A stretch of 56,800 bases of DNA from a bacterium (GCA_037141135.1 JBAXDB010000002.1:1-56800), one strand, 5' to 3'; shown: positions 26,162 to 44,540, numbered from the stretch's first letter. Notes: generated from the letters alone by a model not told the origin. A program made the numbers and translations.

Positions 26162-29100
26162 ATGACAGGGCTGGGCGATTTTCATTTCATGGCGACCTCG
26201 ATTGCGGGCTTTATGGCTCCTGATATCGCCCTAGCCGCCATCCGGGCGGGCGAAATCGGCATTATCAATGGCGAGTCGGCGCCGTCCGAGGCCGCCCTGC
26301 GCTCCGCCCTCGCCGAACTCCGCGACGCCCCCCGCGAACGATGCGGTTTGCGCCTTGACCTGGGCAATACCACCATCACTCCCGGCCTCCTGAAAGACCT
26401 GCCTCCGCAGGTGGGCTGGATTATCCTCGCCCGCACTAAACCCGCGGAAGTGGGCGGGCATATCCTCCGCCTGCACAAACACGACGTGCGGGTCTTGGTT
26501 GAATCCGTTGAGCTTGAGACGGCCCAAGCGGCGGAAACGGCCGGGGCAGACGGCGTGATTGCCAAAGGAAACGAGGCGGGCGGCTGGGTCGGCGAGGAAA
26601 CCTCCTTTATTCTCCTGCAACGGCTTCGCCAGGTCATCACGTTGCCAATCTGGATTCAGGGAGGCATCGGCGCCCATACGGTTGCTGCAGCCTATGTCGG
26701 GGGAGCGGTCGGCGTCGTGTTGGATTCCGCCCTGGCATTGCTGCAGGAATCAAAACTTCCCTCACAGGCCAAAGCCCTTATTGGACGTATGGATGGCAGT
26801 GAAACTCAGTGTTTCGCCGTGGATGGGGCCCTGTATTTCCGCTCCCTTGCACCCCGTGGTACGGCCACGCAAGGACTCCGGGCAGAGGATATCCTCCGCC
26901 AAGTCGGCTGGGAGGATGATCAGATGCACCTGTTACCGCTCGGGCAGGATGCGTGTTTCGCGCGTTCCCTGGCTGAGCGCTACGGCACCGTGGGCAAAAC
27001 CCTGAGAGGCCTGCGCGCCGAATTGCAGTCTCATCTCAGCGCCGGATGCCGTCACACCCTCCTTATGAAGGATTCCCCCTGGGCGCTCGCACACCATACC
27101 GCGTATCCGATTGTCCAAGGGCCAATGACCCGCGTCAGCGACACGCCCACTTTCGCCAGAGCCGTGGCCGACGCCGGTGGCCTGCCCTTTCTGGCGCTGG
27201 GGTTGCAGCGTGAATCTGAAATCGAAGCGCTCCTCTCTGAAACCCGGCGCCGCCTCGGTGACAAACCCTGGGGCGTGGGCCTGCTGGGATTTCTGGACGC
27301 CTCCCTGCAAGAAGAACAGTTGGCGGTGGTTCACCGACATCACCCGCCCTTCGCGCTCATCGCTGGCGGTCACCCCGAACAAGCCCGGAGTCTGGATCAG
27401 GAGGGCATTTTGACCTATCTTCATGTGCCCGCCTCCGGCCTGCTCAGGCTATTCATCGAGGATGGCGCGCGCCGGTTTATTTTTGAAGGCCGCGAATGCG
27501 GCGGACATGTCGGCCCGCTCTCCAGTTTCGTGCTCTGGGAACAGACGGCTCAAGTTCTACTGGAATCGGTACCCGCCCATGAACTGCCCGACTGCCACAT
27601 TCTGCTGGCAGGCGGCATTCATGATGCGACCAGCGCCGCCATGGCGGCTACCTGCATGACATCACTGGCGGAACGCGGAGTGAAAATCGGTGTTCTCATG
27701 GGAACGGCTTATCTCTCAACCCGGGAAGCGGTCTCTTCCGGGGCCATTTTGGAAACCTTCCAGCGACAGGCGCTGGCCTGTCAACATACCGTCCTTCTCG
27801 AAACCGGACCCGGCCACGTGGTGCGCTGTGCGCCCACCCCTTATGCGGACGCCTTTGCCACACGCAAGGCCCGGTTGCGCGCCGAAGGAGCTTCCACCGA
27901 CCAACTGCGTACCACCTTGGAAGCCATGAATCTCGGACGGCTGCGACTGGCCGCAAAAGGGGTGATGCGTCAACAGGCCGACCCGGAAGCCCTGGTCCCG
28001 GTGAATGAAAACGAGCAAATCGCCGGGGGGCTTTACATGCTGGGACAGGCGGCCGGATTGCGGGAGAAGGTTTGCACCCTGCAGGAATTGCATCACGAGA
28101 TCAGCGTGGGCGGAACCGAACTCCTGCGCGAGACCCGCCCCGCCACCACAGGCCGGGAACACGAATGCATCGCCATAGTTGGCATGAGTTGTCTGTTGCC
28201 AGGAGCCCGGAATCTCGACCAATTCTGGACCAACATCCTGAACAAGACGAATTCCATTCGCGAAGTACCCCCCACCCGCTGGGACTGGAAACTGTATTTT
28301 GACGAGCACCGCGAGACACCTGATCGCATTTACGCGCGCTGGGGCGGGTTCCTTGACCCCGTCGCATTTGATCCGGCGAGTTACGGCATGCCGCCCAGTT
28401 CGCTCGCCTCCATCGAACCCATTCAGTTGCTGGCGTTGGAACTGGCGCGCACCGCGTTGCGGGACGCCGGATACGAAAATCGTTCTTTCCCAAGGGAAAA
28501 CACAGCGGTCATCATCGGCGTCAGCGGCGGTCTGGCAGAGTTGGGCCAGGACTACGTTCTGCGTTCTGCGCTGTCGGCTGGGCCTGACAGGCCCACCATG
28601 ACGGGCATCCAGCGGAAACTGCCCGAGTGGACGGAAGATTCTTTTGCCGGTATTCTCCTTAATGTTATTGCCGGCCGCATCACCAACCGTTTCGACCTGG
28701 GTGGGCCCAGTTTCACTGTGGACGCGGCCTGCGCGTCTTCGCTGGCCGCCGTATATCTTGCCTGTCGTGAACTTGAAAGCGGTGCAAGCGACATGGTTCT
28801 TGTCGGCGGGGCCGATACTTTTCAGAGTCCTTTCAACTACCTCTGTTTCTGCAAAACACAGGCGCTCTCCCCACGCGGTCGTTGCCGCACCTTCGACCAT
28901 ACCGCTGACGGCACCTGCATCAGCGAGGGACTTTCCATGCTGGTTCTGAAACGGGTTAGTGATGCGGAACGGGATGGCGACCGCATCTACGCCGTCATCA
29001 AGGGAGTAGGCGCCTCCAGTGACGGGCGCGCCAAAGGTTTAACGGCACCCTCACCGGAAGGGCAGATCCGCGCGCTCCAGCGCGCTTATACCTCGGCAGG

Positions 29101-32100
29101 CGTTTCGCCCGCGACAATCGGTTTGATCGAAGCACACGGAACTGGAACCGTGGCGGGCGACCGGGCGGAGACCGAATCCCTGCGCCGGGTCTTCGAGACT
29201 GCCGGCGCCAAACCCGGTTCGGTAGCCCTCGGTTCGGTGAAATCCATGATCGGCCATACCAAGGGCGCCGCAGGCGTTACCGGCCTGCTCAAGGTAGCCA
29301 TGGCACTCCACCACAAGGTCCTGCCCGCCACCCTAGGCGTGGAGAAACCGAACGACAGCCTGACCAACGGGGCGCTTTACGCCAACACCGAAACTCGCCC
29401 CTGGATCTCCGCCACTCCTGGCCAACCCCGCCGCGCAGCGGTCAGCGCTTTCGGGTTTGGTGGCGCAAACTATCACGCTATTGTTGAAGAATATGCCGGG
29501 GCGGCCGCCCCGGCCGCCTCCGAACAGTGGCCCTGTGAGCTTTTTCTGTGGCGCGCCCTCTCCGTCACAGAAATCGGGTCCCGCATCACCGCGCTGCTGG
29601 CGGACTTGAAGGCGGGTGCCCGCCCGGAGCTGAAAGACCTTTCCTTTACGTTGTGGCACATCGCCCAACACCAACTCGAGGGCGTCACACTGGCCATCGT
29701 GGCCTCCTCGCTTCAAGACCTGTCCGCCAAACTGGAAACGGTCGGCGCCAAACTGGGCGACGGGACAGCCGCCGTATGGGACACCGCCTCCGGCACCTAT
29801 CTGGCCCCGCAGGCGCTGGCGCGGAACAGCGGCCTCGCCTTTCTATTCCCGGGACAAGGCTCACAATATCCCGACATGCTGCGTGAACTGGCTGTTCATT
29901 TCCACGAAATCCGCGAAGCCTTCGAGACCGCCGACCGGACCCTCGCCGGCCACTTTGGAAAGCCGCTATCGTCTTTTGTATTCCCGCCGCCGCGCTTCAA
30001 TGAAGAAGAGGAACGTGCGGTGCGCCGGTCCCTCACGGCCACTCATGTGGCTCAACCTGCGCTCGGCGCCGCCGCCACGGGCCTGCTGGACTTGTTGTGC
30101 GCCCTGGGTGTGACTCCCAACCGGGTGGCAGGCCACAGTTATGGCGAGTATGCGGCACTCCACGCCGCTGGTTGCCTTACCGCCGAACAATTGTTGGCCC
30201 TGTCGGAAGCCCGCGGACGGTTCATCACGGAAGAAGCCCAAGGGGATCTGGGCGCCATGGCGGCGGTCGAGGCCGACGAGGAGAAGACCCGCGCCCTCGT
30301 GGGCGACCTCCCCGACCTCTGGATCGCCAACCTTAATTCACCGCGCCAGACCATCATCTCCGGCGCCAAATCCGCGATTGCGGCCGCGCTGAAGCGCCTC
30401 GAATCCCAGGAGGTCACAGCTCAAGCGATTCCTGTGGCCTGCGCCTTTCATTCGCCTCTCGTGGCTCCCGCCAAGGAACGGCTGCAAACGCTGCTCGGGG
30501 AGACGTCCTTCGCCGTACCCAAACTGGCCGTTTATTCCAACTCCACTGGCGGCGCCTATCCGGCTGACCCGGCCGCCATCCGGGCGCAACTGGGGGAACA
30601 TCTGGTATCGCCCGTGCGGTTCGTGGCGGAAATCGAGGCGATGTATGCGGCAGGAACACGCGTCTTTGTCGAAGTCGGTCCCCGTAGCGTGCTGACCGGA
30701 CTAACCGAACAGATTCTGGGAGATCGCGAGCGGATGGTCGTGCCGTTGGAGACGCGCAAACGCTCCGGTCTGGAAGCGCTGTTGCACGCCCTGGCTCAAC
30801 TGGCCGCCCATGGAACACCGGTACGATTGGACCGGCTATTCGAAGGCCGGTGCCCTTGTAAATACGCATTGGAGCACTTAATCAAGGAAACCCGCGACGC
30901 CCCCTTCCCGCCCACCGCCTGGTGGGTGGAAGGTGGCCGAGCCACACCCATGCACTCACAAACCCTTCCTTCACAAGAGCAAAAACCAACTGTCCCGGTT
31001 TCAACTCAGGGAGAATCCGGCAACCTTGCGGCGATGCTGAAGGCTCATGAACAGGTCATGCAACGCCTCCTCGATACTCATCAACGCGTCATGGCAGCAG
31101 CGCTGGGTAAGCCCCCCCCCGTGGTGATGGCAAAGTATTCTGCACCCGCGCCCCAGACGCCCGTTCCCGCAGCAACGCCCATCCCGGTGGCGCCGGTCAG
31201 TCCCGCATCACCGGCAACACCCGTTGCGCAGAAATACAGCGCCGAGCACATCCGGCAGGAGGTATTGCGTATTGCGGGCGAACGTACCGGGTATCCGCCG
31301 GATATGCTGGATGTTGACGCTGATCTTGAAGCGGATCTCGGCATTGATTCCATCAAGCGCGTCGAAATCGCCGGCCGTCTGCGCAAGGCGTTCCCCCATC
31401 TCGGCGCCTCCCCCGACGCCTCAACCGCCGGAAACCTGGCAAGTCTCAGAACATTGCGGGGTCTCATCGAACGGATCGCCTCGGTTCCTGTCAACGGAAG
31501 TCCGGCGGTCCCGAAACCCGAAGGGGTTGCAACGGCTGAACCTGTCACGAAGGCCGATGCGGACGTTCCGGTGCCGCGCTTCATGATGCGAATGGAAGAT
31601 GCGCCCGCACCGGCGGAGAAGGCCGGATTGCCGCAGGGCGTGCTCCTCATCACGGATGACGGGAATGGACTTGCCGACACCGTGGCAGACGCCCTCCGAG
31701 CCGAGGGTGCCCGTGCCGTGGTGGTTTCGGCAAATGGCAAGCCAGGCGGTACGGCCACCCATTATCCGGCCGATTTTTCAAGCCCGGCGAGCCTGCATGA
31801 ACTGGTCGCCACCCTCCGCCGGACCGAGGGCCAAATCGCCGGCCTGATTCACCTGCGGCCACTCCGTCACCGCGCCCCCGCCGCCGAAAGGTCCCTGGAC
31901 CTGTGGCGTCGGACGATCCAGGAAGACGTCAAAGCGCTCTTCTATCTGGCCCAGGCGGCCGCAGCGGATTTAAAATCTCCTCCCGCAGGCCACCATTGTG
32001 TGTTCGCGGTCATCGGAATGGCTGACGGGTTCCCCGGCCATGGTGGCCTGACGGGATTGATCAACACCCTTGCCACGGAATGGCCCGGCCTCAGGGGCCG

Positions 32101-34090
32101 CACCCTCGCCCTCGACAACCGCGAGTCCCTGCTCACGCTGGCGCAAGCGATCATGGATGAACTGCACTGCGACGACCATGCCCGGTTCATCAGTTTCAAA
32201 CAGGGCAGGCGGCAACAGGTCCGGATCGAGCCGGCTGAACTGCGCCCGGGCAAGGAGGAATCGATGCGCATCGGCCAGGACTGGGTCATTCTGATCACGG
32301 GAGGCGCCTGCGGCATCACGGCGCAGGTCGCGCTGGAACTGGCTGAACGCTTCAAGCCCACGCTGGTGCTGGCAGGCCGTTCTCCCTTACCCGCCGCCCA
32401 GGAAGCCGATCCGACGCGAGGCATCATGGAACCCGTGGAACTCCGCCGCATTCTTGCCGAACAATTATCAAAAGCGGCAGGCAAGGCGACCATGGCCGAT
32501 ATCGAGGCCGCCTATCGCCGCCTGTGCCGGGAACGGGAAATTCGAGCCACCCTGTCGGACCTTCGTAAAACCGGCGCCAAGGTAACCTATGTTCAAACCG
32601 ATGTACGCGATGCCCAGTCTTTCGGGGACACCGTGGATCACCTCTATACCGAGTTCGGGCGATTGGATGGCGTGATCCATGGGGCGGGCCTGATCGAGGA
32701 CAAGCGGGTGGAGGACAAAACTCCCGGATCTTTCGACCGCGTTTTCGACACTAAGGCGGATGGCGCATTTATACTGGCACGGCATTTACGACTCGACTCG
32801 CTTAAATTCCTGGTCTTTTTCTCATCCGTGGCCTCGCTCGGTAATGCCGGGCAAAGCGATTATGCAGCCGCCAACGGTGTGTTGAACGCTTTGGCCTGCG
32901 ATTTGGATCGCCACATGGCGGGGCGGGCTATCGCCATTTTATGGGGCCCCTGGCAAAGCGCCGGCATGGCATCGGAAGAGGTCCAGCGCCGGTTTCAGGA
33001 TCGGGGGGTACAGATTATCCCCCTCACGGCAGGCCGGCGTCGCCTGATCGAAGAGTTGCTCTACGGACGCAAGGGTAACGTGGAGGTGCTTTATGGCGAC
33101 GCCCCCTACGCTTCCGTAGAGGCCCGGGCGAAGGAAGGGCGAAAGGCGCTTCCCCTGATCGCGGGTGATGAATCCGTGATCCACAACAACGGCTCGGTCG
33201 AAATCGCCTGTGTGCTCGATACCGCCGAGCAGGCCTACCTGCTCGATCATCAACTCGACGGCAAGCCGGTGTTTCCCGCGGCCATGGCCATGGAACTGAT
33301 GGCGGAATCGGCCTGGGTCTTCACGGCGCCCAAAACCGGCGGGATTGAAATAACCTCACTGCAGATCCAGCAAGGCATCGTGCTGCAGGCGGGGCGGCTG
33401 CCTCTACGGGTCATCGGTTGCCTGGCAGCCACTCCGCCCAGCCTACCGAACACCTCGTCCTGTTCCATGCAAATCCACACCTCCAAGACCCCGCAGCGCG
33501 CGAATTACCTGGCCGGAATCACCCTCGGCCTCGATTCAACACCCCCTTTGTTGTTTCCCGAAACAGACGGAACATTTTACCCTTTTCCGCTCAGCGTACC
33601 CGAGGTCTATGCACGCTGGCTTTTTCAGGGGCCTTGTTTTGCGGGCATCACGGCGATTGAAGGAATACGGAAAGACGCTATTGCGGGAATGCTGCACTCG
33701 GTGTCCCCGGCGCAGTGCCTGTCCAAGGCTCCCCACGAAAGCCAATGGCTAATTGATCCCACAGTGGTCGATGCCTCGCTTCAACTCGTCATTCTCTGGG
33801 AGCGTCACTGGCACAACATGACGCCCCTGCCCATGCAAATCGGACGGTTCCGACTTTATCACTCCCTCTCCACACAGCCCGTTCGCTGCTGTGTCAAGGC
33901 GGCGGTGTCCGATGGAGGAGAATTACTGACAGCCGATCTGTATTATACCAATACGCAAGGCCAGTTGCTTGCGGTCATGGAGGGTTTGCAATGCGCCTGT
34001 ACGCGGGCGCTTAACCGACTTAGCAACTCGCCCGTCCATCAAATGTCCATCCATGGCGACAAAGAAAGGCGGCACATCGCGGCATGTTGA
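26162..34090 (+). CDS. Iterative type I PKS/FAS-like megasynthase ('secondary lipid' synthase): ER-like, ER, KS, AT, ACP, KR, DH
   Basis: 2642 aa, one uninterrupted ORF. All domain signatures were read directly from the translation (see the domain entries below). RBS GGAG lies 9 nt upstream of the ATG. Confidence 0.9.
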   Translation: MTGLGDFHFMATSIAGFMAPDIALAAIRAGEIGIINGESAPSEAALRSALAELRDAPRERCGLRLDLGNTTITPGLLKDLPPQVGWIILARTKPAEVGGHILRLHKHDVRVLVESVELETAQAAETAGADGVIAKGNEAGGWVGEETSFILLQRLRQVITLPIWIQGGIGAHTVAAAYVGGAVGVVLDSALALLQESKLPSQAKALIGRMDGSETQCFAVDGALYFRSLAPRGTATQGLRAEDILRQVGWEDDQMHLLPLGQDACFARSLAERYGTVGKTLRGLRAELQSHLSAGCRHTLLMKDSPWALAHHTAYPIVQGPMTRVSDTPTFARAVADAGGLPFLALGLQRESEIEALLSETRRRLGDKPWGVGLLGFLDASLQEEQLAVVHRHHPPFALIAGGHPEQARSLDQEGILTYLHVPASGLLRLFIEDGARRFIFEGRECGGHVGPLSSFVLWEQTAQVLLESVPAHELPDCHILLAGGIHDATSAAMAATCMTSLAERGVKIGVLMGTAYLSTREAVSSGAILETFQRQALACQHTVLLETGPGHVVRCAPTPYADAFATRKARLRAEGASTDQLRTTLEAMNLGRLRLAAKGVMRQQADPEALVPVNENEQIAGGLYMLGQAAGLREKVCTLQELHHEISVGGTELLRETRPATTGREHECIAIVGMSCLLPGARNLDQFWTNILNKTNSIREVPPTRWDWKLYFDEHRETPDRIYARWGGFLDPVAFDPASYGMPPSSLASIEPIQLLALELARTALRDAGYENRSFPRENTAVIIGVSGGLAELGQDYVLRSALSAGPDRPTMTGIQRKLPEWTEDSFAGILLNVIAGRITNRFDLGGPSFTVDAACASSLAAVYLACRELESGASDMVLVGGADTFQSPFNYLCFCKTQALSPRGRCRTFDHTADGTCISEGLSMLVLKRVSDAERDGDRIYAVIKGVGASSDGRAKGLTAPSPEGQIRALQRAYTSAGVSPATIGLIEAHGTGTVAGDRAETESLRRVFETAGAKPGSVALGSVKSMIGHTKGAAGVTGLLKVAMALHHKVLPATLGVEKPNDSLTNGALYANTETRPWISATPGQPRRAAVSAFGFGGANYHAIVEEYAGAAAPAASEQWPCELFLWRALSVTEIGSRITALLADLKAGARPELKDLSFTLWHIAQHQLEGVTLAIVASSLQDLSAKLETVGAKLGDGTAAVWDTASGTYLAPQALARNSGLAFLFPGQGSQYPDMLRELAVHFHEIREAFETADRTLAGHFGKPLSSFVFPPPRFNEEEERAVRRSLTATHVAQPALGAAATGLLDLLCALGVTPNRVAGHSYGEYAALHAAGCLTAEQLLALSEARGRFITEEAQGDLGAMAAVEADEEKTRALVGDLPDLWIANLNSPRQTIISGAKSAIAAALKRLESQEVTAQAIPVACAFHSPLVAPAKERLQTLLGETSFAVPKLAVYSNSTGGAYPADPAAIRAQLGEHLVSPVRFVAEIEAMYAAGTRVFVEVGPRSVLTGLTEQILGDRERMVVPLETRKRSGLEALLHALAQLAAHGTPVRLDRLFEGRCPCKYALEHLIKETRDAPFPPTAWWVEGGRATPMHSQTLPSQEQKPTVPVSTQGESGNLAAMLKAHEQVMQRLLDTHQRVMAAALGKPPPVVMAKYSAPAPQTPVPAATPIPVAPVSPASPATPVAQKYSAEHIRQEVLRIAGERTGYPPDMLDVDADLEADLGIDSIKRVEIAGRLRKAFPHLGASPDASTAGNLASLRTLRGLIERIASVPVNGSPAVPKPEGVATAEPVTKADADVPVPRFMMRMEDAPAPAEKAGLPQGVLLITDDGNGLADTVADALRAEGARAVVVSANGKPGGTATHYPADFSSPASLHELVATLRRTEGQIAGLIHLRPLRHRAPAAERSLDLWRRTIQEDVKALFYLAQAAAADLKSPPAGHHCVFAVIGMADGFPGHGGLTGLINTLATEWPGLRGRTLALDNRESLLTLAQAIMDELHCDDHARFISFKQGRRQQVRIEPAELRPGKEESMRIGQDWVILITGGACGITAQVALELAERFKPTLVLAGRSPLPAAQEADPTRGIMEPVELRRILAEQLSKAAGKATMADIEAAYRRLCREREIRATLSDLRKTGAKVTYVQTDVRDAQSFGDTVDHLYTEFGRLDGVIHGAGLIEDKRVEDKTPGSFDRVFDTKADGAFILARHLRLDSLKFLVFFSSVASLGNAGQSDYAAANGVLNALACDLDRHMAGRAIAILWGPWQSAGMASEEVQRRFQDRGVQIIPLTAGRRRLIEELLYGRKGNVEVLYGDAPYASVEARAKEGRKALPLIAGDESVIHNNGSVEIACVLDTAEQAYLLDHQLDGKPVFPAAMAMELMAESAWVFTAPKTGGIEITSLQIQQGIVLQAGRLPLRVIGCLAATPPSLPNTSSCSMQIHTSKTPQRANYLAGITLGLDSTPPLLFPETDGTFYPFPLSVPEVYARWLFQGPCFAGITAIEGIRKDAIAGMLHSVSPAQCLSKAPHESQWLIDPTVVDASLQLVILWERHWHNMTPLPMQIGRFRLYHSLSTQPVRCCVKAAVSDGGELLTADLYYTNTQGQLLAVMEGLQCACTRALNRLSNSPVHQMSIHGDKERRHIAAC
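26183..26761 (+). other. Megasynthase domain 1: degenerate nitronate-monooxygenase/FabK-PfaD-type enoyl-reductase-like TIM barrel
   Basis: FMAPDIALAAIRAGEIGIING...GVIAKGNEAGGWVG...IQGGIGAHTVAAAYVGGAVGVVLDSAL. The usual EAGGH histidine is Trp (W142, nt 26585-26587). The GTxFL motif is replaced by LDSAL. Confidence 0.6.
27095..27976 (+). other. Megasynthase domain 2: FabK/PfaD/trans-AT-PKS-type enoyl reductase (NMO family)
   Basis: YPIVQGPMTRVSDTPTFARAVADAGGLPFLAL...FIFEGRECGGHVGP...LLAGGIHDATSAAMA...VLMGTAYLSTREA. The canonical GGH and GTxYL motifs are retained. Confidence 0.75.
28160..29491 (+). other. Megasynthase KS domain (active)
   Basis: IAIVGMSCLLPGA...; active-site TVDAACASS (Cys857, nt 28730-28732); IEAHGTGTVAGD; GSVKSMIGHTKGAAG; AVSAFGFGGANYH. 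Confidence 0.9.
29834..30721 (+). other. Megasynthase acyltransferase domain (malonyl-type motifs)
   Basis: FLFPGQGSQY...VAGHSYGEYAAL (Ser1326)...VACAFHSPL... Confidence 0.85.
31238..31486 (+). other. Megasynthase ACP domain (single copy)
   Basis: DADLEADLGIDSIKRVEI with Ser1730 at nt 31349-31351. It is preceded by a Pro/Ala-rich linker. Confidence 0.85.
31634..33031 (+). other. Megasynthase KR domain (structural plus catalytic subdomains)
   Basis: WVILITGGACGITAQVALELA is the Rossmann motif. ...SSVASLGNAGQSDYAAANGVLNA supplies the catalytic Ser/Tyr/Asn region. Confidence 0.8.
33164..34006 (+). other. Megasynthase PKS-type dehydratase (double hot-dog)
   Basis: LLDHQLDGKPVFPAAMAMEL matches HxxxGxxxxP (His2363). 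The downstream DASLQL region fits the second-half Asp motif. Confidence 0.7.
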
Positions 34091-34923: not shown

Positions 34924-35247
34924 ATGAGCTGGCCCTGGCAAAAACCTGAGAACGAACCGAAGGAAACCTTGTTGCAGGAGGTGACCCAGGCCATTGCCCA
35001 AGTTCTTGGCTGCTCCAGTGGCAGAACTCACGCGGACATTCAGCCCACCGCCTACCTCGGCGCCGATCTCGGCTTAAGTTCCATCGCCGTCGCCCGATTG
35101 GCGGGTTTGCTGCAAAAACAACATGGGAAAAAACCCCTGCCTTTCCACAAGTTGTTCGTAAAGCCGGATGGCTCGATGCTCCAGGACATCCGGGTATCGG
35201 ATATCGTGACGTTTCTCGAGTGGCACGTCCTTAACAGTCATCCATGA
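34924..35247 (+). CDS. Stand-alone acyl/peptidyl carrier protein-like protein
   Basis: 107 aa. ...YLGADLGLSSIAVARLAGLL... aligns to the DLGxDS(I/L) phosphopantetheine attachment motif. It starts 1 nt after the PPTase stop. Confidence 0.6.
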   Translation: MSWPWQKPENEPKETLLQEVTQAIAQVLGCSSGRTHADIQPTAYLGADLGLSSIAVARLAGLLQKQHGKKPLPFHKLFVKPDGSMLQDIRVSDIVTFLEWHVLNSHP

Positions 35248-36339: not shown

Positions 36340-38070
36340 ATGAAAATGGCGACACAAAACACCCTTTACTGGATTGTCTCCTTGGGCGTGGTGTGCATGA
36401 TCTATCTCTCGGCGCTGTTATCGCTGCATCCGTCTGTATTCTGGTCACCCGACGAGGGCGCCAAATTCATCCAGATGCACAGCCTGGTTTCAAACACCGG
36501 GACTGCCCATCCCATTTCCTATGGCGCCGCGGCGCAGGATCCGTCTTTCACGTACTATCCCACCGCCCCGATTTATCCGCAGCCGCTCTGGCCCACAGGT
36601 GTTCTCAACCACTGGCCCAATTTGTTTCCTCTTGTTTCGTTACCGTTCTTTCAGCTCTTCGGCCTGCGGGGGCTTTATGTCATTCCTTTGCTCTGCGGCC
36701 TTTTGTCGGTGGTCGCCGTTTCCCGCCTGGCCCGGAACATGGAACCCGGCGCGGCCACACCGGGAATTCTGCTGGCAGGACTAGGCACGCCTTTGCTCTT
36801 CCAATCCGTTCTGTTTCTGGAACATACGTTGGCCGGCGCCCTGGGCCTTGGCGCCCTGCTTTGCGGTGGGGCCGCCTACGGTTCGACGCGGAGTCGCCCA
36901 GGGTTTTCTATTGCCATGATCGCCTGCCTTGTGGGACTGTTCGCCTTGCGCGATGAAACGCTGATCTTCCTGGCCGCCCTGTCATTAACCGGGCTCCTCA
37001 TGCTGGCCTTTGAACGAAAACCCACCGGCCTTCGCGCCGGGCTGATGTTGCTCGTTTTCTTTCTGTTCCTTGTCATGGTGAAAACGATGGGCGATAATAT
37101 GGGCGGCTCCAACCGGGTCGCGGAACTCGTCCGCAATATAACACGGGCTCTGGCAGGTCTTCAAGATCCTGCCTTGTGGAGCGCTTTCCCCGATCACCTG
37201 TTACAGGTATTCATCAATAACCCCGGGCAGTTCGGGGTCCCGTTATCACCCGGATGGACTGTGACAGGACTTGTCGGACTCGGTTTGTGCGCGTTCTCCC
37301 TGATGGCAGGCACCCGGTGGCGGTTCCCCTGCTGGCTGCTCGGGGCGGTCCTCGTCAGCATCCCCAGTCTCCTCGGGCTTTGCCTGCCGGATCGGTACCG
37401 GGCGGTTCACGGCCTGTTGCTCGCGGCGCCCTGCCTGGTTCTGGCCTGGTTGCCATCGCGGTTGGGCAGTCAACCACGGCGCCGCACCGAACGGTTTCTC
37501 ATGATATTACTGCCGGTTTACCTGGTCATCTATGCGCTTGCCACCTGGCTTTTCCGCCGCCCCTCGGGCGGGCCGGAATGGGGACTGCGGTATGCCCTGA
37601 TCGCCTATCTGCTGGCGGCGGCTTTGGGCGCGGTGGCCGTTACCCGATTCCAGCAGACAAGCAGGGGCTGGCACCGGTTTACCGGACTCGGGGTGGCCGC
37701 CTTGCTCCTGGCCTTGTCGTGCGGTTATGGCATGCGCGGAATTGTGGAGGTCCAGGTCACCAAACGGGATCTTCAGGCCTTTGAACAGGAGATTCTTGAA
37801 GCCCACTGCCCGATCATCACCGACCAATGGTGGCTGGCGTCGGCTCTGGCGCCCGCCTTCGTCCGCACTGAATTTTACACTGATAATCCCTGCACTGCCA
37901 GCGGCTTGTGGCTGGCTCGCATCGCGCCCCGAAAACGGGAGTTCCTCTATGTCAGTTATGCCCCTCCGCCGGACTCGGCCAAGGGGCCCAATGGAGTGAG
38001 GCTCACTCTAGCAGGGCGTCGCACCATTCAGGGCATGACATTCTCCCGCTACAATCTGGAGACACCATGA
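36340..38070 (+). CDS. Polytopic membrane protein, GT-C-fold (ArnT/PMT_2-like) glycosyltransferase candidate
   Basis: The track ORF starts at 36319. I prefer ATG 36340, which is preceded by GAGG at 5-nt spacing. The protein has at least 12 TM segments and an acidic motif (WSPDEGAKF) in the first loop, as in GT-C enzymes. Confidence 0.55.
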   Translation: MKMATQNTLYWIVSLGVVCMIYLSALLSLHPSVFWSPDEGAKFIQMHSLVSNTGTAHPISYGAAAQDPSFTYYPTAPIYPQPLWPTGVLNHWPNLFPLVSLPFFQLFGLRGLYVIPLLCGLLSVVAVSRLARNMEPGAATPGILLAGLGTPLLFQSVLFLEHTLAGALGLGALLCGGAAYGSTRSRPGFSIAMIACLVGLFALRDETLIFLAALSLTGLLMLAFERKPTGLRAGLMLLVFFLFLVMVKTMGDNMGGSNRVAELVRNITRALAGLQDPALWSAFPDHLLQVFINNPGQFGVPLSPGWTVTGLVGLGLCAFSLMAGTRWRFPCWLLGAVLVSIPSLLGLCLPDRYRAVHGLLLAAPCLVLAWLPSRLGSQPRRRTERFLMILLPVYLVIYALATWLFRRPSGGPEWGLRYALIAYLLAAALGAVAVTRFQQTSRGWHRFTGLGVAALLLALSCGYGMRGIVEVQVTKRDLQAFEQEILEAHCPIITDQWWLASALAPAFVRTEFYTDNPCTASGLWLARIAPRKREFLYVSYAPPPDSAKGPNGVRLTLAGRRTIQGMTFSRYNLETP

Positions 38071-39638
38071 AACAGAAGGCAGGAGGCAGGAGGCAGAAGG
38101 CAGAAGGGAAGGGAAACCCTGGCCTCCTGAACCCTGACCCCTGCCCCGAGTCTCGTTCCCACCTCCTTGGGTTGCTGGTTTTCCTGGCGCCCTTCTGCCT
38201 CTACTTCAACACCATGGCGCAAACGGTTTACGGGCTTGACAGTGCAGAACTGACCACCGGGGCCTATACGCTCGGCATTGTGCACAGTCCAGGCTCCCCG
38301 CTCTACCTTCTGGTGGGCCGGCTCTTTTGTTTTTTGCCCTTTGGCGATGTGGGCTGGCGGATGAACCTGCTCTCGGTGGTGACGGGTTCCCTGAGTGCTT
38401 TTTTTATCTATGCCATAGTAGTCCGGCTCACCGGCCGCGCCTGGATCGGCGTGGTCACCGCCTGGCTGCTGGCGGCCTCCTATTACATCTGGGTCTGGAA
38501 CGTCGTGGCCGAACTTTATTCGCCGCATCTCTGTATCGTGTCAACCTTGATCTGGCTGATCATCAAGTGGCGCGATACGCATCGCGACGGGTTTCTATGG
38601 GTCACCGGCATCCTGGCAGGGCTGGGGACGGGTAATCATACAGCTTTGATTCTGGTCGGCCCTGGCCTGGCCTGGTTGGTCTTCACCTCTGATCCAACGC
38701 TCTGGCGAAAGCCCTGGCGCTTCCTCGGTCCGGGACTCGCCTTTCTGGGCGCTTTTATCGCGATCTTCCTGTACATACCGATCCGCTCGATGGCTCACCC
38801 GGCCCTGGATTACGTGCACGATTATTTTCCCCAGATCAACCTGCTCACGATCAAGGGGGTGATCTGGATGATCCGGGGAGGCATGTTTGAAAGCCTTTTT
38901 TTCAACGTCACCTGGAGCGAGATCGGCAGCCATCTGTTCCGACTCGGAACGCAACTGGTGGCCAATTTCGGGTTCATGGCAACCGCCGTGGGACTGCTGG
39001 GCCTGGTCGCCGGGCTGGCCGGTTCACGCGAACGCCGCCATTTCATCCTCTCATGCCTGCTTATGTTCCTCTTTCACTCCGGCTTCTATCTGACCTACGG
39101 TGCCGCGGACATCGAATGGATGTATTCGGTGAGTTACCTGGTTCTGGCTTTATTCTTCTGTTTGGGATTGTCCGAGCTGGCCGACCGAATTCCCGTTTTG
39201 CCGCTGCCGGGCGGAAAACTCCCTGTCACGGCCCTGAAAATACTCGCGGGACTCATGGTGCTACGGCTCATCTGGTTCAACTACCCCTATCTGGATCTCA
39301 GCCGTGATTTTTCGGCCCGCGCCACCGGGGAAAGGATCCTGACCGCCATCGGACCGCAGGCGCTCTTTGTCGGCATGTGGGAACACGAACCCATACTCGA
39401 ATACCTGCAACTGGTTGAAGGCCGGAGACCGGACGTGCGCATCATCAACGGGGTATTCACTGGGCCCATTGGGGCGCAACAACTTTCCTGCGAGGCCCTC
39501 CGCGATGGCCATCCTGTTTACACGACATATACCAATCTGTTCGGGCAGGATTTCATCATCAGCCCTTTCAAAGGCGGGATTTGTTATCGCGTTTTAGCAA
39601 ATGAGATTCTGACAGGAAGTCAATCACTTCCTCACTGA
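38067..39638 (+). CDS. DUF2723-type GT-C-fold membrane glycosyltransferase-like protein
   Basis: The track ORF starts at 37908. I prefer Met54 (ATG 38067), which forms an ATGA overlap with the upstream stop. VYGLDSAELTTGAYTLGIVHSPGSPLYLLVGRLF resembles the conserved N-terminal DUF2723 block. The protein is polytopic with a C-terminal soluble domain. Confidence 0.6.
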   Translation: MKQKAGGRRQKAEGKGNPGLLNPDPCPESRSHLLGLLVFLAPFCLYFNTMAQTVYGLDSAELTTGAYTLGIVHSPGSPLYLLVGRLFCFLPFGDVGWRMNLLSVVTGSLSAFFIYAIVVRLTGRAWIGVVTAWLLAASYYIWVWNVVAELYSPHLCIVSTLIWLIIKWRDTHRDGFLWVTGILAGLGTGNHTALILVGPGLAWLVFTSDPTLWRKPWRFLGPGLAFLGAFIAIFLYIPIRSMAHPALDYVHDYFPQINLLTIKGVIWMIRGGMFESLFFNVTWSEIGSHLFRLGTQLVANFGFMATAVGLLGLVAGLAGSRERRHFILSCLLMFLFHSGFYLTYGAADIEWMYSVSYLVLALFFCLGLSELADRIPVLPLPGGKLPVTALKILAGLMVLRLIWFNYPYLDLSRDFSARATGERILTAIGPQALFVGMWEHEPILEYLQLVEGRRPDVRIINGVFTGPIGAQQLSCEALRDGHPVYTTYTNLFGQDFIISPFKGGICYRVLANEILTGSQSLPH

Positions 39639-39705: not shown

Positions 39706-39933
39706 ATGACCGCAGTGCCCGAATATATAAAGGTGGGCAGACAGGGAATCGTGATTAAAGGCGCACGGATACCCGCCTCGTTCTTCCGCCATTTGATGCC
39801 TGGCAAGAGTTTCGTCGTTCTTGCCGAGGGAGATCGACGCCTGATGCACGTCCGTGCCAAAGACGTCAAGGCCCTCCAGCGCGCCTATCGCGATTATATA
39901 CGCAATCTTGGAAGTCGCCGCACCAGAAACTAA
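39706..39933 (+). CDS. Small basic protein, unknown (weak AbrB/MazE-like resemblance)
   Basis: 75 aa from ATG 39706, preceded by GGGAGAG at 5-nt spacing. KVGRQGIVIKGARIPASFFRHL loosely resembles SpoVT/AbrB swapped-hairpin motifs. Confidence 0.4.
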   Translation: MTAVPEYIKVGRQGIVIKGARIPASFFRHLMPGKSFVVLAEGDRRLMHVRAKDVKALQRAYRDYIRNLGSRRTRN

Positions 39934-39998: not shown

Positions 39999-40373
39999 AT
40001 GCAAAACATTCTTATTCGATCATGGAAACAAGTGGTGGTGGTCTTGCTGCTCATCGGTGTGGACCTGGCCGTGAGTCTGCCGATCATGGGGGCAACGTAC
40101 CGGCCGTTCCAATGGATGACCATTGCTTCGACAAATACGCCCGTGCTCTACCCGGTGATCCAGAATCTGTCCTTTGTGGGCGGCAAACCCTATCTGGCCG
40201 TTCAGACAACCAACGGCCAGTCTTGTGTGTTGCAGTGCAACACCAACCTGAAAAACTCAACCGGATGGTTCAATGTGGTGACCATAACGGCAACCGGTCG
40301 GGTGATACATCTGACGGATACGAATCCCATTCCCCGCAGTTCCGCGTTCTACCGCGTAACAGGCTCATTCTAA
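39999..40373 (+). CDS. Small secreted or anchored protein, unknown
   Basis: 124 aa. It has an N-terminal hydrophobic segment (VVVVLLLIGVDLAVSL) and a beta-rich remainder ending ...AFYRVTGSF. Confidence 0.5.
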   Translation: MQNILIRSWKQVVVVLLLIGVDLAVSLPIMGATYRPFQWMTIASTNTPVLYPVIQNLSFVGGKPYLAVQTTNGQSCVLQCNTNLKNSTGWFNVVTITATGRVIHLTDTNPIPRSSAFYRVTGSF

Positions 40374-40380
40374 GAACGAC

Positions 40381-43300
40381 ATGAATGCCCCCCTTCCAGA
40401 TATCGCCCTCGTTGGCATGGCGGGGATCTATCCCGGAGCTCCCGTCCTCAGCCGACTTTGGAATAACATCGTGGCCAAAATTGAAACGGTCTCCGACGCC
40501 CCCGCCAGTTGGAATGCCGGGCACTTTCACGATCCCACCGCGGGGGGGGATAACAATACGCACACCTATTGCCAGCGGGGGGGATTCATCGAAGCCTTTG
40601 CCGAGTTCGATCCACTGGATTTCGGTATTATGCCCGGTTCTGTCGATGGCAGCGACCCCGGACATTTTCTAACCCTGCGGGTCGCCAAGGAGGCGCTGGC
40701 GGATGCCGGCTACCTGGAACGCCCCTTTGACCGCCAGCGCACCGGCGTGATCATCGGGCATGGCAGCTATCCGCATCGAGGCATGACATCCAGCGGTGCC
40801 TATGGCGAAGCCGAACGGTTTGTTGAACTGCTGCGGACAATTGTCCCCGAACTTCCACCCCAGGTCATAGATACCCTCGTGAGCCGGATCAAAAGCCGGC
40901 TTCCGCCATTCACCCCGGATACCTGCCCGGGCCTGATTTCCAATGTCCTTTCCGGCCGCATCGCCAACCGCCTGAACCTGATGGGACCCAATTACCTGGT
41001 GGATGCCGCCTGCGCGTCCTCGCTCATTGCCCTCGATGCGGGCATGCGGGAACTGGTGGCCGGACGGTGTGACATGATGCTCGTTGGCGGAGCGCAGGAA
41101 AACACCAACGCCGGTGTCTTCATCGTCTTCTCCATGTTGGGCGCTCTCTCCAAACGCGGCAAGTTACGCCCCTTCGACAAAAATGCAGATGGCACCCTGC
41201 TGGGCGAAGGCGTGGGCTTTGCCGTGATCAAGCGCCTGGCGGATGCCGAGCGGGACGGGGATCGCATTTATGCGGTGATCAAAGGGCTCGGCCTCTCCAG
41301 CGACGGGCAGGGACAGGCCTTTCTCGTACCCCGGCTTGAGGGCGAAGTGACCGCCATGGAACGTGCATATCAGGCCGCCGGCTTTTCCCCGTCCACGGTG
41401 GACCTGGTGGAGGCGCATGGAACCGGCACGGCCGTCGGCGACCGCATCGAGATTCAAGCCATGACCAGGATTTTTGGCGCGCGCAACGGCCAGTTACCGC
41501 GCTGCGCGGTGGGTTCCGTGAAGTCCATGATCAGCCACACGATCCCGGCATCAGGGATGGCCAGTCTTTTCAAAACCTCGCTCGCCCTATTCCATAAGGT
41601 GTTGCCCCCGACCCTGTGCGAGGAACCAAACTCCGAATTGGGAATCGATGAGAGCGCCCTTTATATCAACACCGAGTCACGGCCCTGGATCCATGGCAAG
41701 GCCTATCCACGTCGTGCGGGCGTGAATGCCTTCGGCTTCGGCGGCATCAACAGCCACGTCGTGCTTGAAGAGTATGCGCCGGATTGTGCGAAGGGTACGC
41801 TTCTACGCGATTGGCCCTGCGAATTGGTTACGGTGCGGGGCGCCTCACGTCTGGCTGTCAGCGAAAAGGCCCGTGTTCTGCGCCAAGGTCTTGCGAAATT
41901 GCCGTCGGAGACAGCCCTCCGAGACATAGCCTTCACCCTTAACAGTCTGGATAAACCCTACACCGCACCTTGCTGCCTGACCATCGTGGCGGAATCCTCT
42001 CAGGACCTGAATTCGAAACTCGATGCCGCCGTCGCGGCTTTGGAAGATCCCGAACGCACCGCCATTCAGGAGCGGCAGGGGATCTATTATTTTGACAAGC
42101 CTCTGGCCCGTGAGGGGAAACTCGCCTTTCTCCTGCCCGGCGAGGGAGCCCAGTATGCCGGCATGCTAGGGGATCTCTGCATCCATTTCGACGAGGTCCG
42201 GAGCTGGTTCGACCGGGCTGATCGCGCTTTCATCGATCGCGGCCGAAGCCCGTTGCCCAGCCAGATTGTATTTCCGTCCCCCCACTTGACCCAGCCCGAG
42301 CAACAGGGCGTGGAGGCCGCCTTATGGAGCATGGAATATGCCCTGCCCCTTGTCGCCACTGCCGATAGCGCCCTGTATCATCTACTTCTGGTATTAGGCG
42401 TGCGGCCACAGGCAATTGCCGGCCATAGCACGGCCCAGGACCTCGCGCTCGAAGCCGCCGCCTTCGCCGATTGCACGACACCAGCCAATGTCATGGATAA
42501 ACCGGTGATCGAGGATCGCGTGATTGAGCAATGGGTTCGCGACCTGGTTCCTGCGGCGCAACTTCTTTCGGTAGGTGCCTCGGAGCCCGCACGTATCGCG
42601 CAGTTGGCGGCGGAAAGCGCAGGAGCACTCCATGTGGCCATGGACAACTGTCCGAATCAGGGTATCCTGTGCGGCAGTCCGGAAGCGATTGCGGCGGCGC
42701 GCGCCACACTGGAGTCCGAAGGCGCGCTATGCCAGTTCCTGCCCTTTGACCGCGGATACCACACGCCGATGTACCGACCCATCTGCGACCGGATCGAACA
42801 AACCGCCGGCACGTATGAGGACCGCATCCCGAAGATTCCCGTTTATTGCACCACCACGGGCAAGCGCCTGCCGGAGACGCCGGCCGAGATCCGGCGCATC
42901 ATGATTGACCAGTGGGCTGATCCCATCCGGTTCCGGGAAACGATAGAAACCATGTACTCCGACGGAGTGCGCCTTTTCCTGGAAGTGGGCCCGCGCGGCA
43001 ACCTCACCGGATTTGTGGATGACATTCTGGCCGGGCGCGACTACTCGGCCATCCCCTGCAATCTCGCTTCACGGGGAGGACTCCTCCAACTTCACCATGC
43101 CTTGGCGCAACTCTGCGCCCACGGCGTGGAGGTGTCCCTGGATCGGCTTTACTCTCAACGTCGTCCCAGCCAACTGGCTATGGATGCTACTGGACTGACG
43201 TCCACCGCGTCGCCCCGCCGGCGTCCAATAAAACTCAAAATGGACATTCCCCTGATAACCCTGGATGAAACTGATCGCCGGGAGTTACGAGATCAACTGA

Positions 43301-43482
43301 CCGCCATACTGGGCGGCAGTCAGGCACCCGCACCGGCCGCGGTTCCGGCAAGCGTTTTTCAAACTCCACCAACCGATTCGCCCGTGCTGCAAGCGCACAT
43401 TCAGACATTGGATCGAATCCTGGCAACACACGAGGATGTCATGCAAGCCCTGTTCACCCAAGTCGGCACACACGCCCCATAA
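40381..43482 (+). CDS. Second type I PKS-like synthase: KS plus divergent acyltransferase/hydrolase-like domain
   Basis: 1033 aa. See the KS and AT entries below. The C-terminal tail carries the helical motif LQAHIQTLDRILATHEDVMQALF, which parallels LKAHEQVMQRLLDTHQRVMAAAL located after the AT of the large synthase. Confidence 0.85.
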   Translation: MNAPLPDIALVGMAGIYPGAPVLSRLWNNIVAKIETVSDAPASWNAGHFHDPTAGGDNNTHTYCQRGGFIEAFAEFDPLDFGIMPGSVDGSDPGHFLTLRVAKEALADAGYLERPFDRQRTGVIIGHGSYPHRGMTSSGAYGEAERFVELLRTIVPELPPQVIDTLVSRIKSRLPPFTPDTCPGLISNVLSGRIANRLNLMGPNYLVDAACASSLIALDAGMRELVAGRCDMMLVGGAQENTNAGVFIVFSMLGALSKRGKLRPFDKNADGTLLGEGVGFAVIKRLADAERDGDRIYAVIKGLGLSSDGQGQAFLVPRLEGEVTAMERAYQAAGFSPSTVDLVEAHGTGTAVGDRIEIQAMTRIFGARNGQLPRCAVGSVKSMISHTIPASGMASLFKTSLALFHKVLPPTLCEEPNSELGIDESALYINTESRPWIHGKAYPRRAGVNAFGFGGINSHVVLEEYAPDCAKGTLLRDWPCELVTVRGASRLAVSEKARVLRQGLAKLPSETALRDIAFTLNSLDKPYTAPCCLTIVAESSQDLNSKLDAAVAALEDPERTAIQERQGIYYFDKPLAREGKLAFLLPGEGAQYAGMLGDLCIHFDEVRSWFDRADRAFIDRGRSPLPSQIVFPSPHLTQPEQQGVEAALWSMEYALPLVATADSALYHLLLVLGVRPQAIAGHSTAQDLALEAAAFADCTTPANVMDKPVIEDRVIEQWVRDLVPAAQLLSVGASEPARIAQLAAESAGALHVAMDNCPNQGILCGSPEAIAAARATLESEGALCQFLPFDRGYHTPMYRPICDRIEQTAGTYEDRIPKIPVYCTTTGKRLPETPAEIRRIMIDQWADPIRFRETIETMYSDGVRLFLEVGPRGNLTGFVDDILAGRDYSAIPCNLASRGGLLQLHHALAQLCAHGVEVSLDRLYSQRRPSQLAMDATGLTSTASPRRRPIKLKMDIPLITLDETDRRELRDQLTAILGGSQAPAPAAVPASVFQTPPTDSPVLQAHIQTLDRILATHEDVMQALFTQVGTHAP
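40393..41775 (+). other. KS domain of the second synthase (catalytic Cys-His-His retained)
   Basis: IALVGMAGIYPGA...; LVDAACASS (Cys211, nt 41011-41013); VEAHGTGTAVGD; GSVKSMISHTIPASG; NAFGFGGINSH. Confidence 0.85.
42118..43020 (+). other. Divergent AT-like domain of the second synthase
   Basis: FLLPGEGAQY replaces GQGSQ. IAGHSTAQDLAL (Ser683, nt 42427-42429) has GHSxA in place of GHSxG. FDRGYHTPM stands where AFHS is expected. Confidence 0.65.
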
Positions 43483-43496
43483 TACTGCTAACCAAT

Positions 43497-44540
43497 ATGA
43501 AAAATCACTCCTTACGGTTGTCTTTCTGCCTCTTGCTTCTTCCTTTCCCCGCGCTCAGTTCCACTCCTCACTCCGCGTTTGATCGATACTCGGTCATCCT
43601 CACGCGCATGCCCTTTGGCAATGAGTCTTCCGCCGCCCCACTAGCCACCAGCGCTACTGTCGTGACCCCGCCTCCCCTGGAGAGCTTCACCAAGAACCTC
43701 AAGATGTGCGCCATCACCCGCAACCACTTTGACGGTAAAATTCAGATCGGTATCGTCAATATGATCACCCGGAAAAGTTATTTCCTCCACGAAGGTGCCT
43801 CGGAAGACGGCATGGAACTCGTCCGGGCCGATTTCGACAACGAAAAGGCGCTGTTGAAAAAGAACACCGAGGCAGTATGGATGGATATGACGTCGGCGAC
43901 GGCAGCTACACCCGTGGTCACCTTTGGACCGCACGGCATGCAAATTATCCCGCCTTCACCAGTAGCGCAGCCTGTACTTTCCACAGGGGTAAATGATAAT
44001 TCCACCGGCAACGCGGATAACCGCGCGGGCTCATCCTCCTCAAGGTCTTTAGACGCGGAGTTTCAACTAAAAATGGGGCAACCTCAGGTGGAGCGTACCA
44101 TTTCCCGAGAAAGTTCCGAAATGATTCCCCCTCCTACGCCTGTGGGGGCGGGCGGTTTTGGGCGGGTGAATAACAGTCCCGTGGTTGCATCCACGACCAA
44201 GGGTCAGACGGCGACGGCAAGTTCTGCGGCGCTGGCCTTAAACCAGAGCATGGCGAGCGCGTTGGAAGTGGCCGCGCTGATTCCGCCCCCGGATCCAATT
44301 CCGGCTCAAGTGGCCGCGACGCCCGGTTCTGCCTCGGTGAACAATGATGTGAGGGTTATGGATTACACTCAAGAAGTGCCTCAGTTAACCGCCGCGTATC
44401 TGCAGAAACAACTTCAGGATTATCAGATGGAGTTAATCCGAGCGCAAGGCGCAAAAGGCCCGCCATTACCCATTGTATTGACTCCCTCGATGGACGCCCA
44501 GTTGGTCTCCGAGGGCGTCCTGCCCCCCAGTGCGCAGTAA
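43497..44540 (+). CDS. Secreted protein, unknown; Ser/Thr/Ala/Pro-rich low-complexity middle
   Basis: 347 aa. It has a signal peptide (LSFCLLLLPFPALSS) and is the last gene of the megasynthase operon. Confidence 0.55.
   Translation: MKNHSLRLSFCLLLLPFPALSSTPHSAFDRYSVILTRMPFGNESSAAPLATSATVVTPPPLESFTKNLKMCAITRNHFDGKIQIGIVNMITRKSYFLHEGASEDGMELVRADFDNEKALLKKNTEAVWMDMTSATAATPVVTFGPHGMQIIPPSPVAQPVLSTGVNDNSTGNADNRAGSSSSRSLDAEFQLKMGQPQVERTISRESSEMIPPPTPVGAGGFGRVNNSPVVASTTKGQTATASSAALALNQSMASALEVAALIPPPDPIPAQVAATPGSASVNNDVRVMDYTQEVPQLTAAYLQKQLQDYQMELIRAQGAKGPPLPIVLTPSMDAQLVSEGVLPPSAQ

Follow-up and report, generated by a model that had tools for sequence, protein, structure and literature searches.

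How does a long acyl chain leave an iterative synthase when none of the familiar release enzymes is encoded beside it? The question is raised by a ten-gene operon on the plus strand (26162-44540) of a 56,800-nucleotide stretch of bacterial DNA (GCA_037141135.1 JBAXDB010000002.1:1-56800), the whole of which is here called the window. The operon encodes a megasynthase, an Sfp-type phosphopantetheinyl transferase (PPTase), a free acyl carrier protein (ACP), a tandem GNAT protein, two membrane proteins likened to glycosyltransferases of the GT-C fold, two small proteins, a ketosynthase-acyltransferase (KS-AT) protein and a secreted protein. As an initial annotation of this DNA had claimed, no thioesterase, terminal reductase, Ole gene or type III polyketide synthase (PKS) was found in the 56.8-kb window; no chalcone-synthase or FabH-like gene was found in the operon or the rest of the window either. 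With moderate confidence, we interpret the operon as a secondary-lipid cluster of uncultured Verrucomicrobiota, in which a chain built by an ArsA-type synthase would be released as an N-acyl lipid by the tandem GNAT.

The conserved cluster and its synthase

The operon is a real conserved gene cluster and not a chance array: Pfam E-values reach down to 1e-69, and at least 12 independent loci preserve the order of the genes, their proteins being 49-80% identical. The uninterrupted plus-strand layout claimed earlier was confirmed, with all ten genes co-directional and separated by nine junctions that read, in order, as a 7-nt overlap, a 0-nt gap, an ATGA overlap, a 7-nt gap, a second ATGA overlap and gaps of 67, 65, 7 and 14 nt. 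A strong intrinsic terminator (44755-44784, plus strand; 13-bp stem with 8 GC pairs, then a T-run) closes the operon. Pfam and NCBIfam bear out nearly all of the first gene and domain calls.

GNAT homologues above 45% identity define about 47 clusters, all metagenome-derived, whose contigs present an identical gene order at 49-80% identity, and a metagenome scan with a narrow profile recovered 14 loci. The named genome bins that hold the cluster belong throughout to uncultured Verrucomicrobiota, plus one Lentisphaerales. Every window protein was run by tblastn against all fetched loci (numbered with the prefix L), revealing a six-gene core in every complete locus: megasynthase, PPTase, free ACP, GNAT, a 75-aa protein and KS-AT. 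Downstream of KS-AT, the orthologous loci carry unrelated genes (GrpE, integrase, AbiEi, alkaline phosphatase and CNNM); the cluster therefore ends at that point, with no hidden release enzyme there. The same operon occurs at 99-100% amino-acid identity on a 36-kb JGI metagenome contig (L030:1-11524; JGI Ga0194060_10000287), so the window organism has been sampled independently.

The megasynthase (26162-34090, plus strand; 2642 aa) shows in Pfam and NCBIfam searches the domain order ER'-ER-KS-MAT-ACP-KR-DH, in which two enoyl reductase (ER) domains precede a ketosynthase (KS), a malonyl-acyltransferase (MAT), an ACP, a ketoreductase (KR) and a dehydratase (DH). Specifically, ER' (26201-26785, aa 14-208) is a first FabK-like half-barrel that matches residues 20-211 of FabK 2z6i, and it is followed by an ER of the FabK/NMO type (27101-28102, aa 314-647; TIGR03151 FabK, E 5e-38; PDB 5gvh). 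KS1 (28166-29341, aa 669-1060; PF00109 and PF02801) has an intact Cys-His-His triad within the motifs DAACASS, EAHGTGT and KSMIGHT, and AT1 (29840-30802, aa 1227-1547; PF00698, 153 bits) is a canonical malonyl transferase in which the motifs PGQGSQ, HVAQP, GHSYG, EARGR and AFHS are all present. The only integrated ACP (31256-31405, aa 1699-1748; PF00550) bears the motif LGIDSI. The KR (32288-32956, aa 2043-2265; PF08659, E 1e-38) and a PKS-type dehydratase, PS-DH (33209-34009, aa 2350-2616; PF21089 and PF14765), complete the protein, the HxxxGxxxxP motif of the latter reading HQLDGKPVFP; all of these domains lie on the plus strand. The tandem ER'-ER-KS N-terminus recurs in 690 proteins at 42-53% identity (Planctomycetota, Actinomycetota, Chloroflexota, Cyanobacteria and others), and the FabK-like ER'-ER pair (window 26162-28141) may form an intramolecular pseudo-dimer.

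Three hallmarks said to be missing are indeed absent: a single PP-binding domain in the megasynthase leaves no tandem ACP repeats, the Cys-His-His triad kept in both KS domains of the operon leaves no pair of KS and chain-length factor (CLF), and no FabA match occurs anywhere in the window that could form a FabA-type DH pair. The synthase was placed by pairwise identities and NCBIfam cut-offs. Its orthologues in related loci are 62-80% identical, and it scores 1093.6 bits against the PfaA subfamily model TIGR02813 (cut-off 1010.1), with pieces aligned to model positions 8-915, 1599-1956 and 1999-2579, which upholds its description as an iterative secondary-lipid synthase.

The synthase nonetheless bears the hallmark of a known class. 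A tblastn search of plasmids identified its decisive relative on Beijerinckia indica pBIND02, where, by annotation and Pfam, a 2674-aa ER'-ER-KS-AT-ACP-KR protein is accompanied by two type III PKSs, a DH-PPTase protein and a GT4 glycosyltransferase. The window megasynthase aligns collinearly with this ArsA homologue: aa 20-1616 are 44% identical, and aa 1695-2310 (the ACP-KR part) 37%. Shulse and Allen reported a Type P ars (alkylresorcinol) cluster in Azotobacter and Beijerinckia indica ATCC 9039, to which the pBIND02 locus would correspond, judging by its gene content; a second ars-type cluster lies on a Methylosinus plasmid, and type III PKS genes are present in both. The megasynthase is thus classed by homology as a type I FAS/PKS (FAS, fatty acid synthase) that works iteratively, of the ArsA/PfaA type, a known synthase class. 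A long-chain synthase of this kind makes the cyst lipids of Azotobacter. According to PMC6274091, the fatty acid of the Ars system stays ACP-bound and is passed directly to the type III PKSs, and this source and PMC13291983 provide the precedent for a saturated C22-C26 acyl product that is kept on the ACP. Given this direct hand-off from the ACP, the missing thioesterase is the norm for the class and not an anomaly.

The PPTase (34084-34923, plus strand; PF01648) shares 32% identity with the corresponding domain in the ArsD homologue from Beijerinckia. Its motif VSISH fits the hShxH P1b' motif, which Shulse and Allen tie to types M-T and not to the polyunsaturated fatty acid (PUFA) types. Together, megasynthase and PPTase can be equated by homology with ArsA and ArsD, the gene borders being shifted.

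Candidates for the release step

The tandem GNAT (35244-36332, plus strand; PF13527, Acetyltransf_9) is the strongest candidate for the enzyme that removes the chain from its carrier and forms an amide, because of its fold, a fusion to a PKS at another locus, the neighbours of its family and the ATGA coupling of its gene to that of the free ACP. Its AlphaFold model (pLDDT 82) consists of two GNAT-like halves, and the top 50 Foldseek matches in the PDB were all N-myristoyltransferases, aligned over the full length (E ~1e-14, TM ~0.6, 350-380 aligned columns). N-myristoyltransferases are thus the best structural match over both halves, and they too are tandem GNAT proteins that move a long acyl thioester to an amine. 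A profile search of PDB sequences found no sequence-level relative with a solved structure. In a Planctomycetota metagenome-assembled genome (JALSID010000365; L019:486-10463, the same locus as L036), a 3325-aa PKS with MaoC, short-chain dehydrogenase/reductase (SDR) and KS-AT-KR-ACP domains carries a C-terminal tandem GNAT domain. This domain belongs to the family of the window protein (28% identity, full-length) and directly follows the final ACP; the position after the last ACP of a PKS is normally held by a release domain.

Distant members of the family adjoin both acyl suppliers, namely a PKS with an ACP (L004), an AMP-ligase with an SDR (L018, L037) or a FabH-like enzyme (L023, L038), and sugar de-N-acetylases, either of the PIG-L type (L004, L006, L018, L037, L039) or of the NodB type (L022), often with glycosyltransferases or flippases nearby. 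Conservation across the whole family extends to a W-x-L-S-M-G-D-S-D motif at the C-terminus, in most cases two residues from the end. The hand-off to an amine through the GNAT, suggested in the initial annotation, is therefore supported by fold, fusion and neighbours as the likeliest route to an amine. The acceptor could be an amino sugar or another small amine; the amino sugar is our best guess, and a weak one, because the window operon holds no deacetylase.

The free ACP (34924-35247, plus strand; 107 aa, PF00550) shows 41% identity to its free counterpart after a KS-AT-DH-PPTase protein in L004 and a weak similarity to the ACP integrated in P0320, a relative of the operon's KS-AT. It is probably the detached carrier of the KS-AT second subunit, though direct support for this is weak, and probably also the acyl donor for the GNAT. 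A GNAT paired with a discrete ACP could be envisioned in a different role, as a CurA-type loading module that works by malonyl-ACP decarboxylation or starter transfer, and GNAT domains initiate polyketide chains elsewhere (as cited in PMC10006239). We regard this as highly improbable. The CurA-type GNAT is a single domain N-terminal to its loading ACP, whereas the window protein is a tandem with an N-myristoyltransferase-like fold; the Planctomycetota fusion places the GNAT C-terminal to the last ACP; the neighbours of the family suggest amino-sugar acylation; and ArsA-type synthases start from malonyl units, without a loading module.

Release by the GNAT must itself be weighed against several observations. 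The operon contains no gene, such as one for a deacetylase, from which the amine could be identified. The match in fold is a moderate one (TM ~0.6, 14% identity), and any tandem GNAT may resemble an N-myristoyltransferase; across the matches, identity is 12-15%, with no family match at the sequence level other than PF13527. N-myristoyltransferases use acyl-CoA and a peptide N-terminus, whereas the donor proposed here is acyl-ACP, and the Acetyltransf_9 family includes plain acetyltransferases such as Eis. The PKS-GNAT fusion is a single locus at 28% identity, the conserved 75-aa core protein has no role in the scheme, and the ketosynthase of KS-AT appears catalytically intact from its residues, such that KS-AT may simply elongate, or release could occur there as well.

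This last point brings in KS-AT (40381-43482, plus strand; 1033 aa; KS2 at aa 7-412 and AT2 at aa 583-879 by Pfam), the best conserved protein of the cluster, with orthologues 70-90% identical. KS2 keeps Cys-His-His. AT2 keeps the Ser-His dyad, with its malonate-binding residues replaced: PGQGSQ has become PGEGAQ, the motif-I Gln is Leu, GHSxG reads GHSTA, and the column of FabD R117 holds Glu in place of Arg, the other motifs being EYALP and GYHT. These replacements are invariant in nine orthologues, and the AT2 motifs are also common to the second-subunit relatives described below. PfaB, which acts on long acyl chains and arose as a duplicate of the KS-AT part of PfaA, has an AT without the malonyl-binding Gln-Arg pair (PMC12895367), and AT2 shows the same pattern, with the dyad kept and the pair lost. 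With the malonyl-binding residues gone from AT2 as they are from PfaB, KS-AT becomes a candidate for off-loading or shuttling the chain, as read from its motifs.

KS-AT is 44-54% identical to second subunits of the form KS-AT-(ACP)-DH(-PPTase), versus 34-41% to the ArsA/megasynthase clade. An exhaustive search of representative sequences with KS-AT gave four usable full-length matches in a single stretch, the rest being giant modular PKSs with summed scores. These second subunits stand after a megasynthase in L026 and L027; the L004 sequence covers the second subunit and free ACP only.

Could KS-AT release the chain itself, by hydrolysis or transacylation at AT2 or by hydrolysis or amidation at KS2, leaving the GNAT as a tailoring acetyltransferase or as an enzyme that acts later on a free intermediate? 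The KS-AT polypeptide has no ACP of its own, its AT has the PfaB pattern, ATs of the PfaB type have been reported as hydrolases (PMC12895367), and there is a precedent in CalA3, where an ACP-less KS-AT module with a C-H-H ketosynthase releases chains by KS-catalysed amidation or hydrolysis (PMC10006239); the rank of KS-AT as the most conserved protein of the cluster also fits. Conversely, close relatives carry their own ACP and DH (P0320 is KS-AT-ACP-DH), the operon encodes a free ACP and so is not truly ACP-less, and both the Planctomycetota PKS-GNAT fusion and the tight ACP-GNAT coupling would go unexplained. Release by KS-AT is, on balance, unlikely.

Under the preferred GNAT reading, the pathway would run as follows. 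The PPTase would activate both carrier proteins, and the megasynthase, as its ArsA homology suggests, would use malonyl units to assemble, on its own ACP, an acyl chain that is long and fully reduced. KS-AT would then take over this chain for late elongation and/or transfer to the free ACP, from which the tandem GNAT would move the acyl group to an amine, setting free an N-acyl lipid. More speculatively, in some lineages the GT-C-like pair and the small secreted protein might process or use the product at the periplasmic face.

Accessory genes, upstream element and flanks

The GT-C enzymes, through which the initial annotation proposed a route to a periplasmic glycoconjugate, are not part of the conserved core: the two membrane genes are gained or lost together with the gene for a 124-aa protein, all three being missing from L009, L010, L011 and L031. 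The claim of two GT-C-fold proteins is firmer for the second. This TMEM260/PMT-like protein (38067-39638, plus strand) matches PF11028 (101.3 bits, cut-off 24.2), PF13231 (PMT_2; 40.3 bits, cut-off 26.1) and TMEM260 in PDB 9rql (E 1e-21). The first, a polytopic membrane protein (36340-38070, plus strand), is a putative GT-C protein that has a sub-threshold NCBIfam match to NF047440 (LA_3751/LA_3752 family; 130.4 bits, cut-off 200, E 8e-38), confined to its N-terminal 250 residues, and no match in Pfam or the PDB. BLASTP revealed no similarity between the two, which rules them out as paralogues.

Both small proteins announced earlier exist, at corrected coordinates. The 75-aa basic orphan protein (39706-39933, plus strand) is a core gene product, with 57-69% identity in every complete locus. 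Its family counts 55 proteins, none of which was seen outside clusters of this type, and K9, G11, G14, IPAS, FRH and GK are invariant. An AbrB/SpoVT-like identity was considered and rejected (no Pfam match, a model of middling quality at pLDDT 71, best Foldseek E 3.9). The 124-aa protein (39999-40373, plus strand) carries a hydrophobic anchor or signal at its N-terminus and an AFYRV motif at its C-terminus. The presence or absence of its gene tracks the GT-C pair; the TMEM260-like enzyme could have it as a partner or substrate. The idea that it is a hidden hotdog thioesterase was dropped in view of its N-terminal anchor or signal and the lack of a Pfam match even at E 10.

These proteins raise a further conceivable destination for the chain, namely attachment to protein, either the 75-aa protein or, in lineages that carry the GT-C pair, the 124-aa secreted protein, the latter being also glycosylated by the TMEM260-like enzyme. 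The closest structural kin of the GNAT acylate protein N-termini and lysines, the 75-aa orphan with its invariant Lys9 is encoded by a core gene, TMEM260 is a protein O-mannosyltransferase, and the 124-aa protein is present only alongside the GT-C pair. By contrast, distant GNAT relatives occur in sugar and lipid contexts without such small proteins, and neither a fold nor an acylation motif can be recognised in the 75-aa protein; the case being one of association, we consider protein attachment very unlikely and retain a small amine as the preferred acceptor.

The last gene encodes a 347-aa secreted low-complexity protein (43497-44540, plus strand) with a signal peptide and no Pfam match. The earlier call of a secreted protein is upheld by that signal peptide; the protein is non-core, with a homologue in the closest relative L001 only.

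Upstream of the operon, a 30-nt element (26087-26116, plus strand; GTTCTAACG-N5-CTGATTG-N4-CTAAC) lies 46 nt before the megasynthase ATG and contains two CTAAC repeats 22 bp apart. It is the sole alignable non-coding block upstream of the megasynthase in 9 loci, and the window holds two matches, versus none expected, the second copy (25350-25379) having 2 mismatches. An RNA leader was rejected (no consensus fold, -0.75 kcal/mol; no Rfam match). Because no conserved RNA fold was found, the element is probably a DNA operator or promoter, likely an operator for the adjacent response regulator. This OmpR-family protein (24524-25243, minus strand; Pfam Response_reg and Trans_reg_C), encoded divergently from the operon, has PhoB as its best NCBIfam match (244 bits, cut-off 296) and occupies an unchanged place in L001, L013 and L014, where its identity is 71-86%. 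The intergenic region between regulator and megasynthase spans 918 nt in the window versus 199 nt in L001; the extra ~700 nt (25380-26086) lie between the two element copies and include a perfect 28-bp palindrome (25906-25933).

Beyond the operon, a second response regulator (45907-46593) also matches PhoB best (240 bits, below the 296 cut-off). The segment at 51130-56711 encodes a porin, PstS, two permeases and an ATPase, placing pstSCAB 8 kb downstream of the operon, and in two relatives an alkaline phosphatase gene directly follows the operon (L012:12247-13983 and L013:18686-20212). The flanking PhoB-like regulators, the nearby pstSCAB genes and the adjoining alkaline phosphatases hint that the operon may be under phosphate-supply control. 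Extending this, one can envision a very-long-chain acyl group of the ArsA type, taken from its carrier by the N-myristoyltransferase-like GNAT under phosphate limitation in freshwater Verrucomicrobiota, to yield an N-acyl membrane lipid free of phosphorus or else a small protein that bears the lipid, a picture into which the conserved operator-like element would also fit; this fuller scenario is a long shot that we judge decidedly unlikely in its entirety.

Elsewhere in the window, a phosphatidylserine-decarboxylase-like gene overlaps the gene for an LGT-like membrane protein (49034-51117). In L014 (19886-20896), counterparts of the decarboxylase-like gene (67% identical) and of the gene for the 794-aa protein that precedes it also adjoin the operon, inverted relative to the window. 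On the other side of the operon, the window contains a polysaccharide cluster (1599-9955; GT4, Wzy_C-type ligase/polymerase, polysaccharide deacetylase and Wza-like exporter) and a TonB/ExbB/TPR/TonB-dependent-receptor cluster (12129-20629).

Significance and comparison with known systems

The known products of secondary-lipid synthases are few, namely PUFAs, heterocyst glycolipids, Azotobacter phenolic lipids, zeamines/fabclavines, megapolipeptins and chitinimines (PMC13291983). If the proposed pathway is correct, GNAT-mediated transfer from an ACP to an amine would be a previously undescribed way to terminate a type I FAS/PKS, and the cluster would add a new off-loading logic and a new lipid class from an abundant uncultured freshwater phylum. 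It also provides a working hypothesis for the widespread two-subunit synthases (a megasynthase plus a KS-AT with a non-malonyl AT) to which no product is assigned. The GNAT family with the W-x-L-S-M-G-D-S-D C-terminus is found repeatedly beside enzymes that activate acyl groups or de-N-acetylate sugars, and could therefore serve as a genome-mining marker for N-acylated glycolipids. In the literature searched, no system was described that combines DUF2723 with a PKS or releases a chain by means of a GNAT.

Among characterised systems, PUFA synthases (pfaABCD) share the KS-MAT-ACP-KR-DH part of the megasynthase, which lies above the PfaA subfamily cut-off. They differ in having 4-6 ACPs versus one in the window and in encoding PfaC, with its KS-CLF and FabA-type DH pair; the window ER, by contrast, is fused and duplicated, and its PPTase has the non-PUFA P1b' motif. 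The window KS-AT resembles PfaB in looking like a duplicate of the synthase's own KS-MAT and in having an AT without the Gln-Arg pair, whereas motif II of its AT2 reads GHSTA and not GYSMG (Tyr for His), and KS2 keeps the Cys (DAACASS) that is missing from the KS of docosahexaenoic-acid-type PfaB. The likeness to CalA3 consists of a KS-AT polypeptide without ACP, an intact C-H-H ketosynthase and a cluster without thioesterase; CalA3, however, carries an inactive DH-KR and is part of a modular assembly line, whereas the window has a free ACP and the relatives of its subunit own an ACP.

Closer to the window are the uncharacterised two-subunit synthases found in many phyla, whose second subunits share with KS-AT 44-54% identity over the full length and the AT motifs PGEG[AS]Q and YHTP, and which in L026 and L027 likewise present the megasynthase before the second subunit. 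By contrast, the window subunit is pared down to KS-AT, with ACP and PPTase as separate genes, and the partners elsewhere are GT1/GT4 glycosyltransferases, a nonribosomal peptide synthetase (NRPS) or a sulfotransferase in place of GT-C proteins. In one such locus (L027:1-25505), a megasynthase and a KS-AT-ACP-DH protein are flanked by an NRPS (C-A-PCP-TE), a PPTase, four GT1/GT28 proteins, a sulfotransferase and methyltransferases, a gene content that probably denotes a sulfated glycolipid cluster.

In logic, the GNAT family recalls the pathways that deacetylate a sugar and then N-acylate it, by NodB, NodA, NodF and NodE for Nod factors and by LpxC and LpxD for lipid A: its distant members adjoin sugar de-N-acetylases and dedicated acyl-chain enzymes. 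It has no homology to NodA or LpxD, however, and the window operon lacks a deacetylase.

The nearest characterised system is Type P Ars, with which the window shares the domain order ER'-ER-KS-AT-ACP-KR, the presence of a DH and an Sfp-type PPTase, the lack of a thioesterase and, by expectation, a chain that stays on the ACP until it is handed on directly. The window megasynthase includes the DH and leaves the PPTase as a protein of its own, whereas ArsD is a DH-PPTase protein, and BLAST found no match between the window DH and that of the ArsD homologue. Also unlike Ars, the window operon is devoid of type III PKS and has instead a second KS-AT subunit, a free ACP, the tandem GNAT and the 75-aa orphan. 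The initial annotation was therefore right that the gene set as a whole matches no characterised pathway: no characterised cluster proved orthologous to the whole neighbourhood, and characterised counterparts exist for the megasynthase and PPTase only. The synthase class is known; what the literature searched does not describe is a synthase of this class that has as partners a KS-AT of the non-malonyl kind, a free ACP and a GNAT with an N-myristoyltransferase-like fold.

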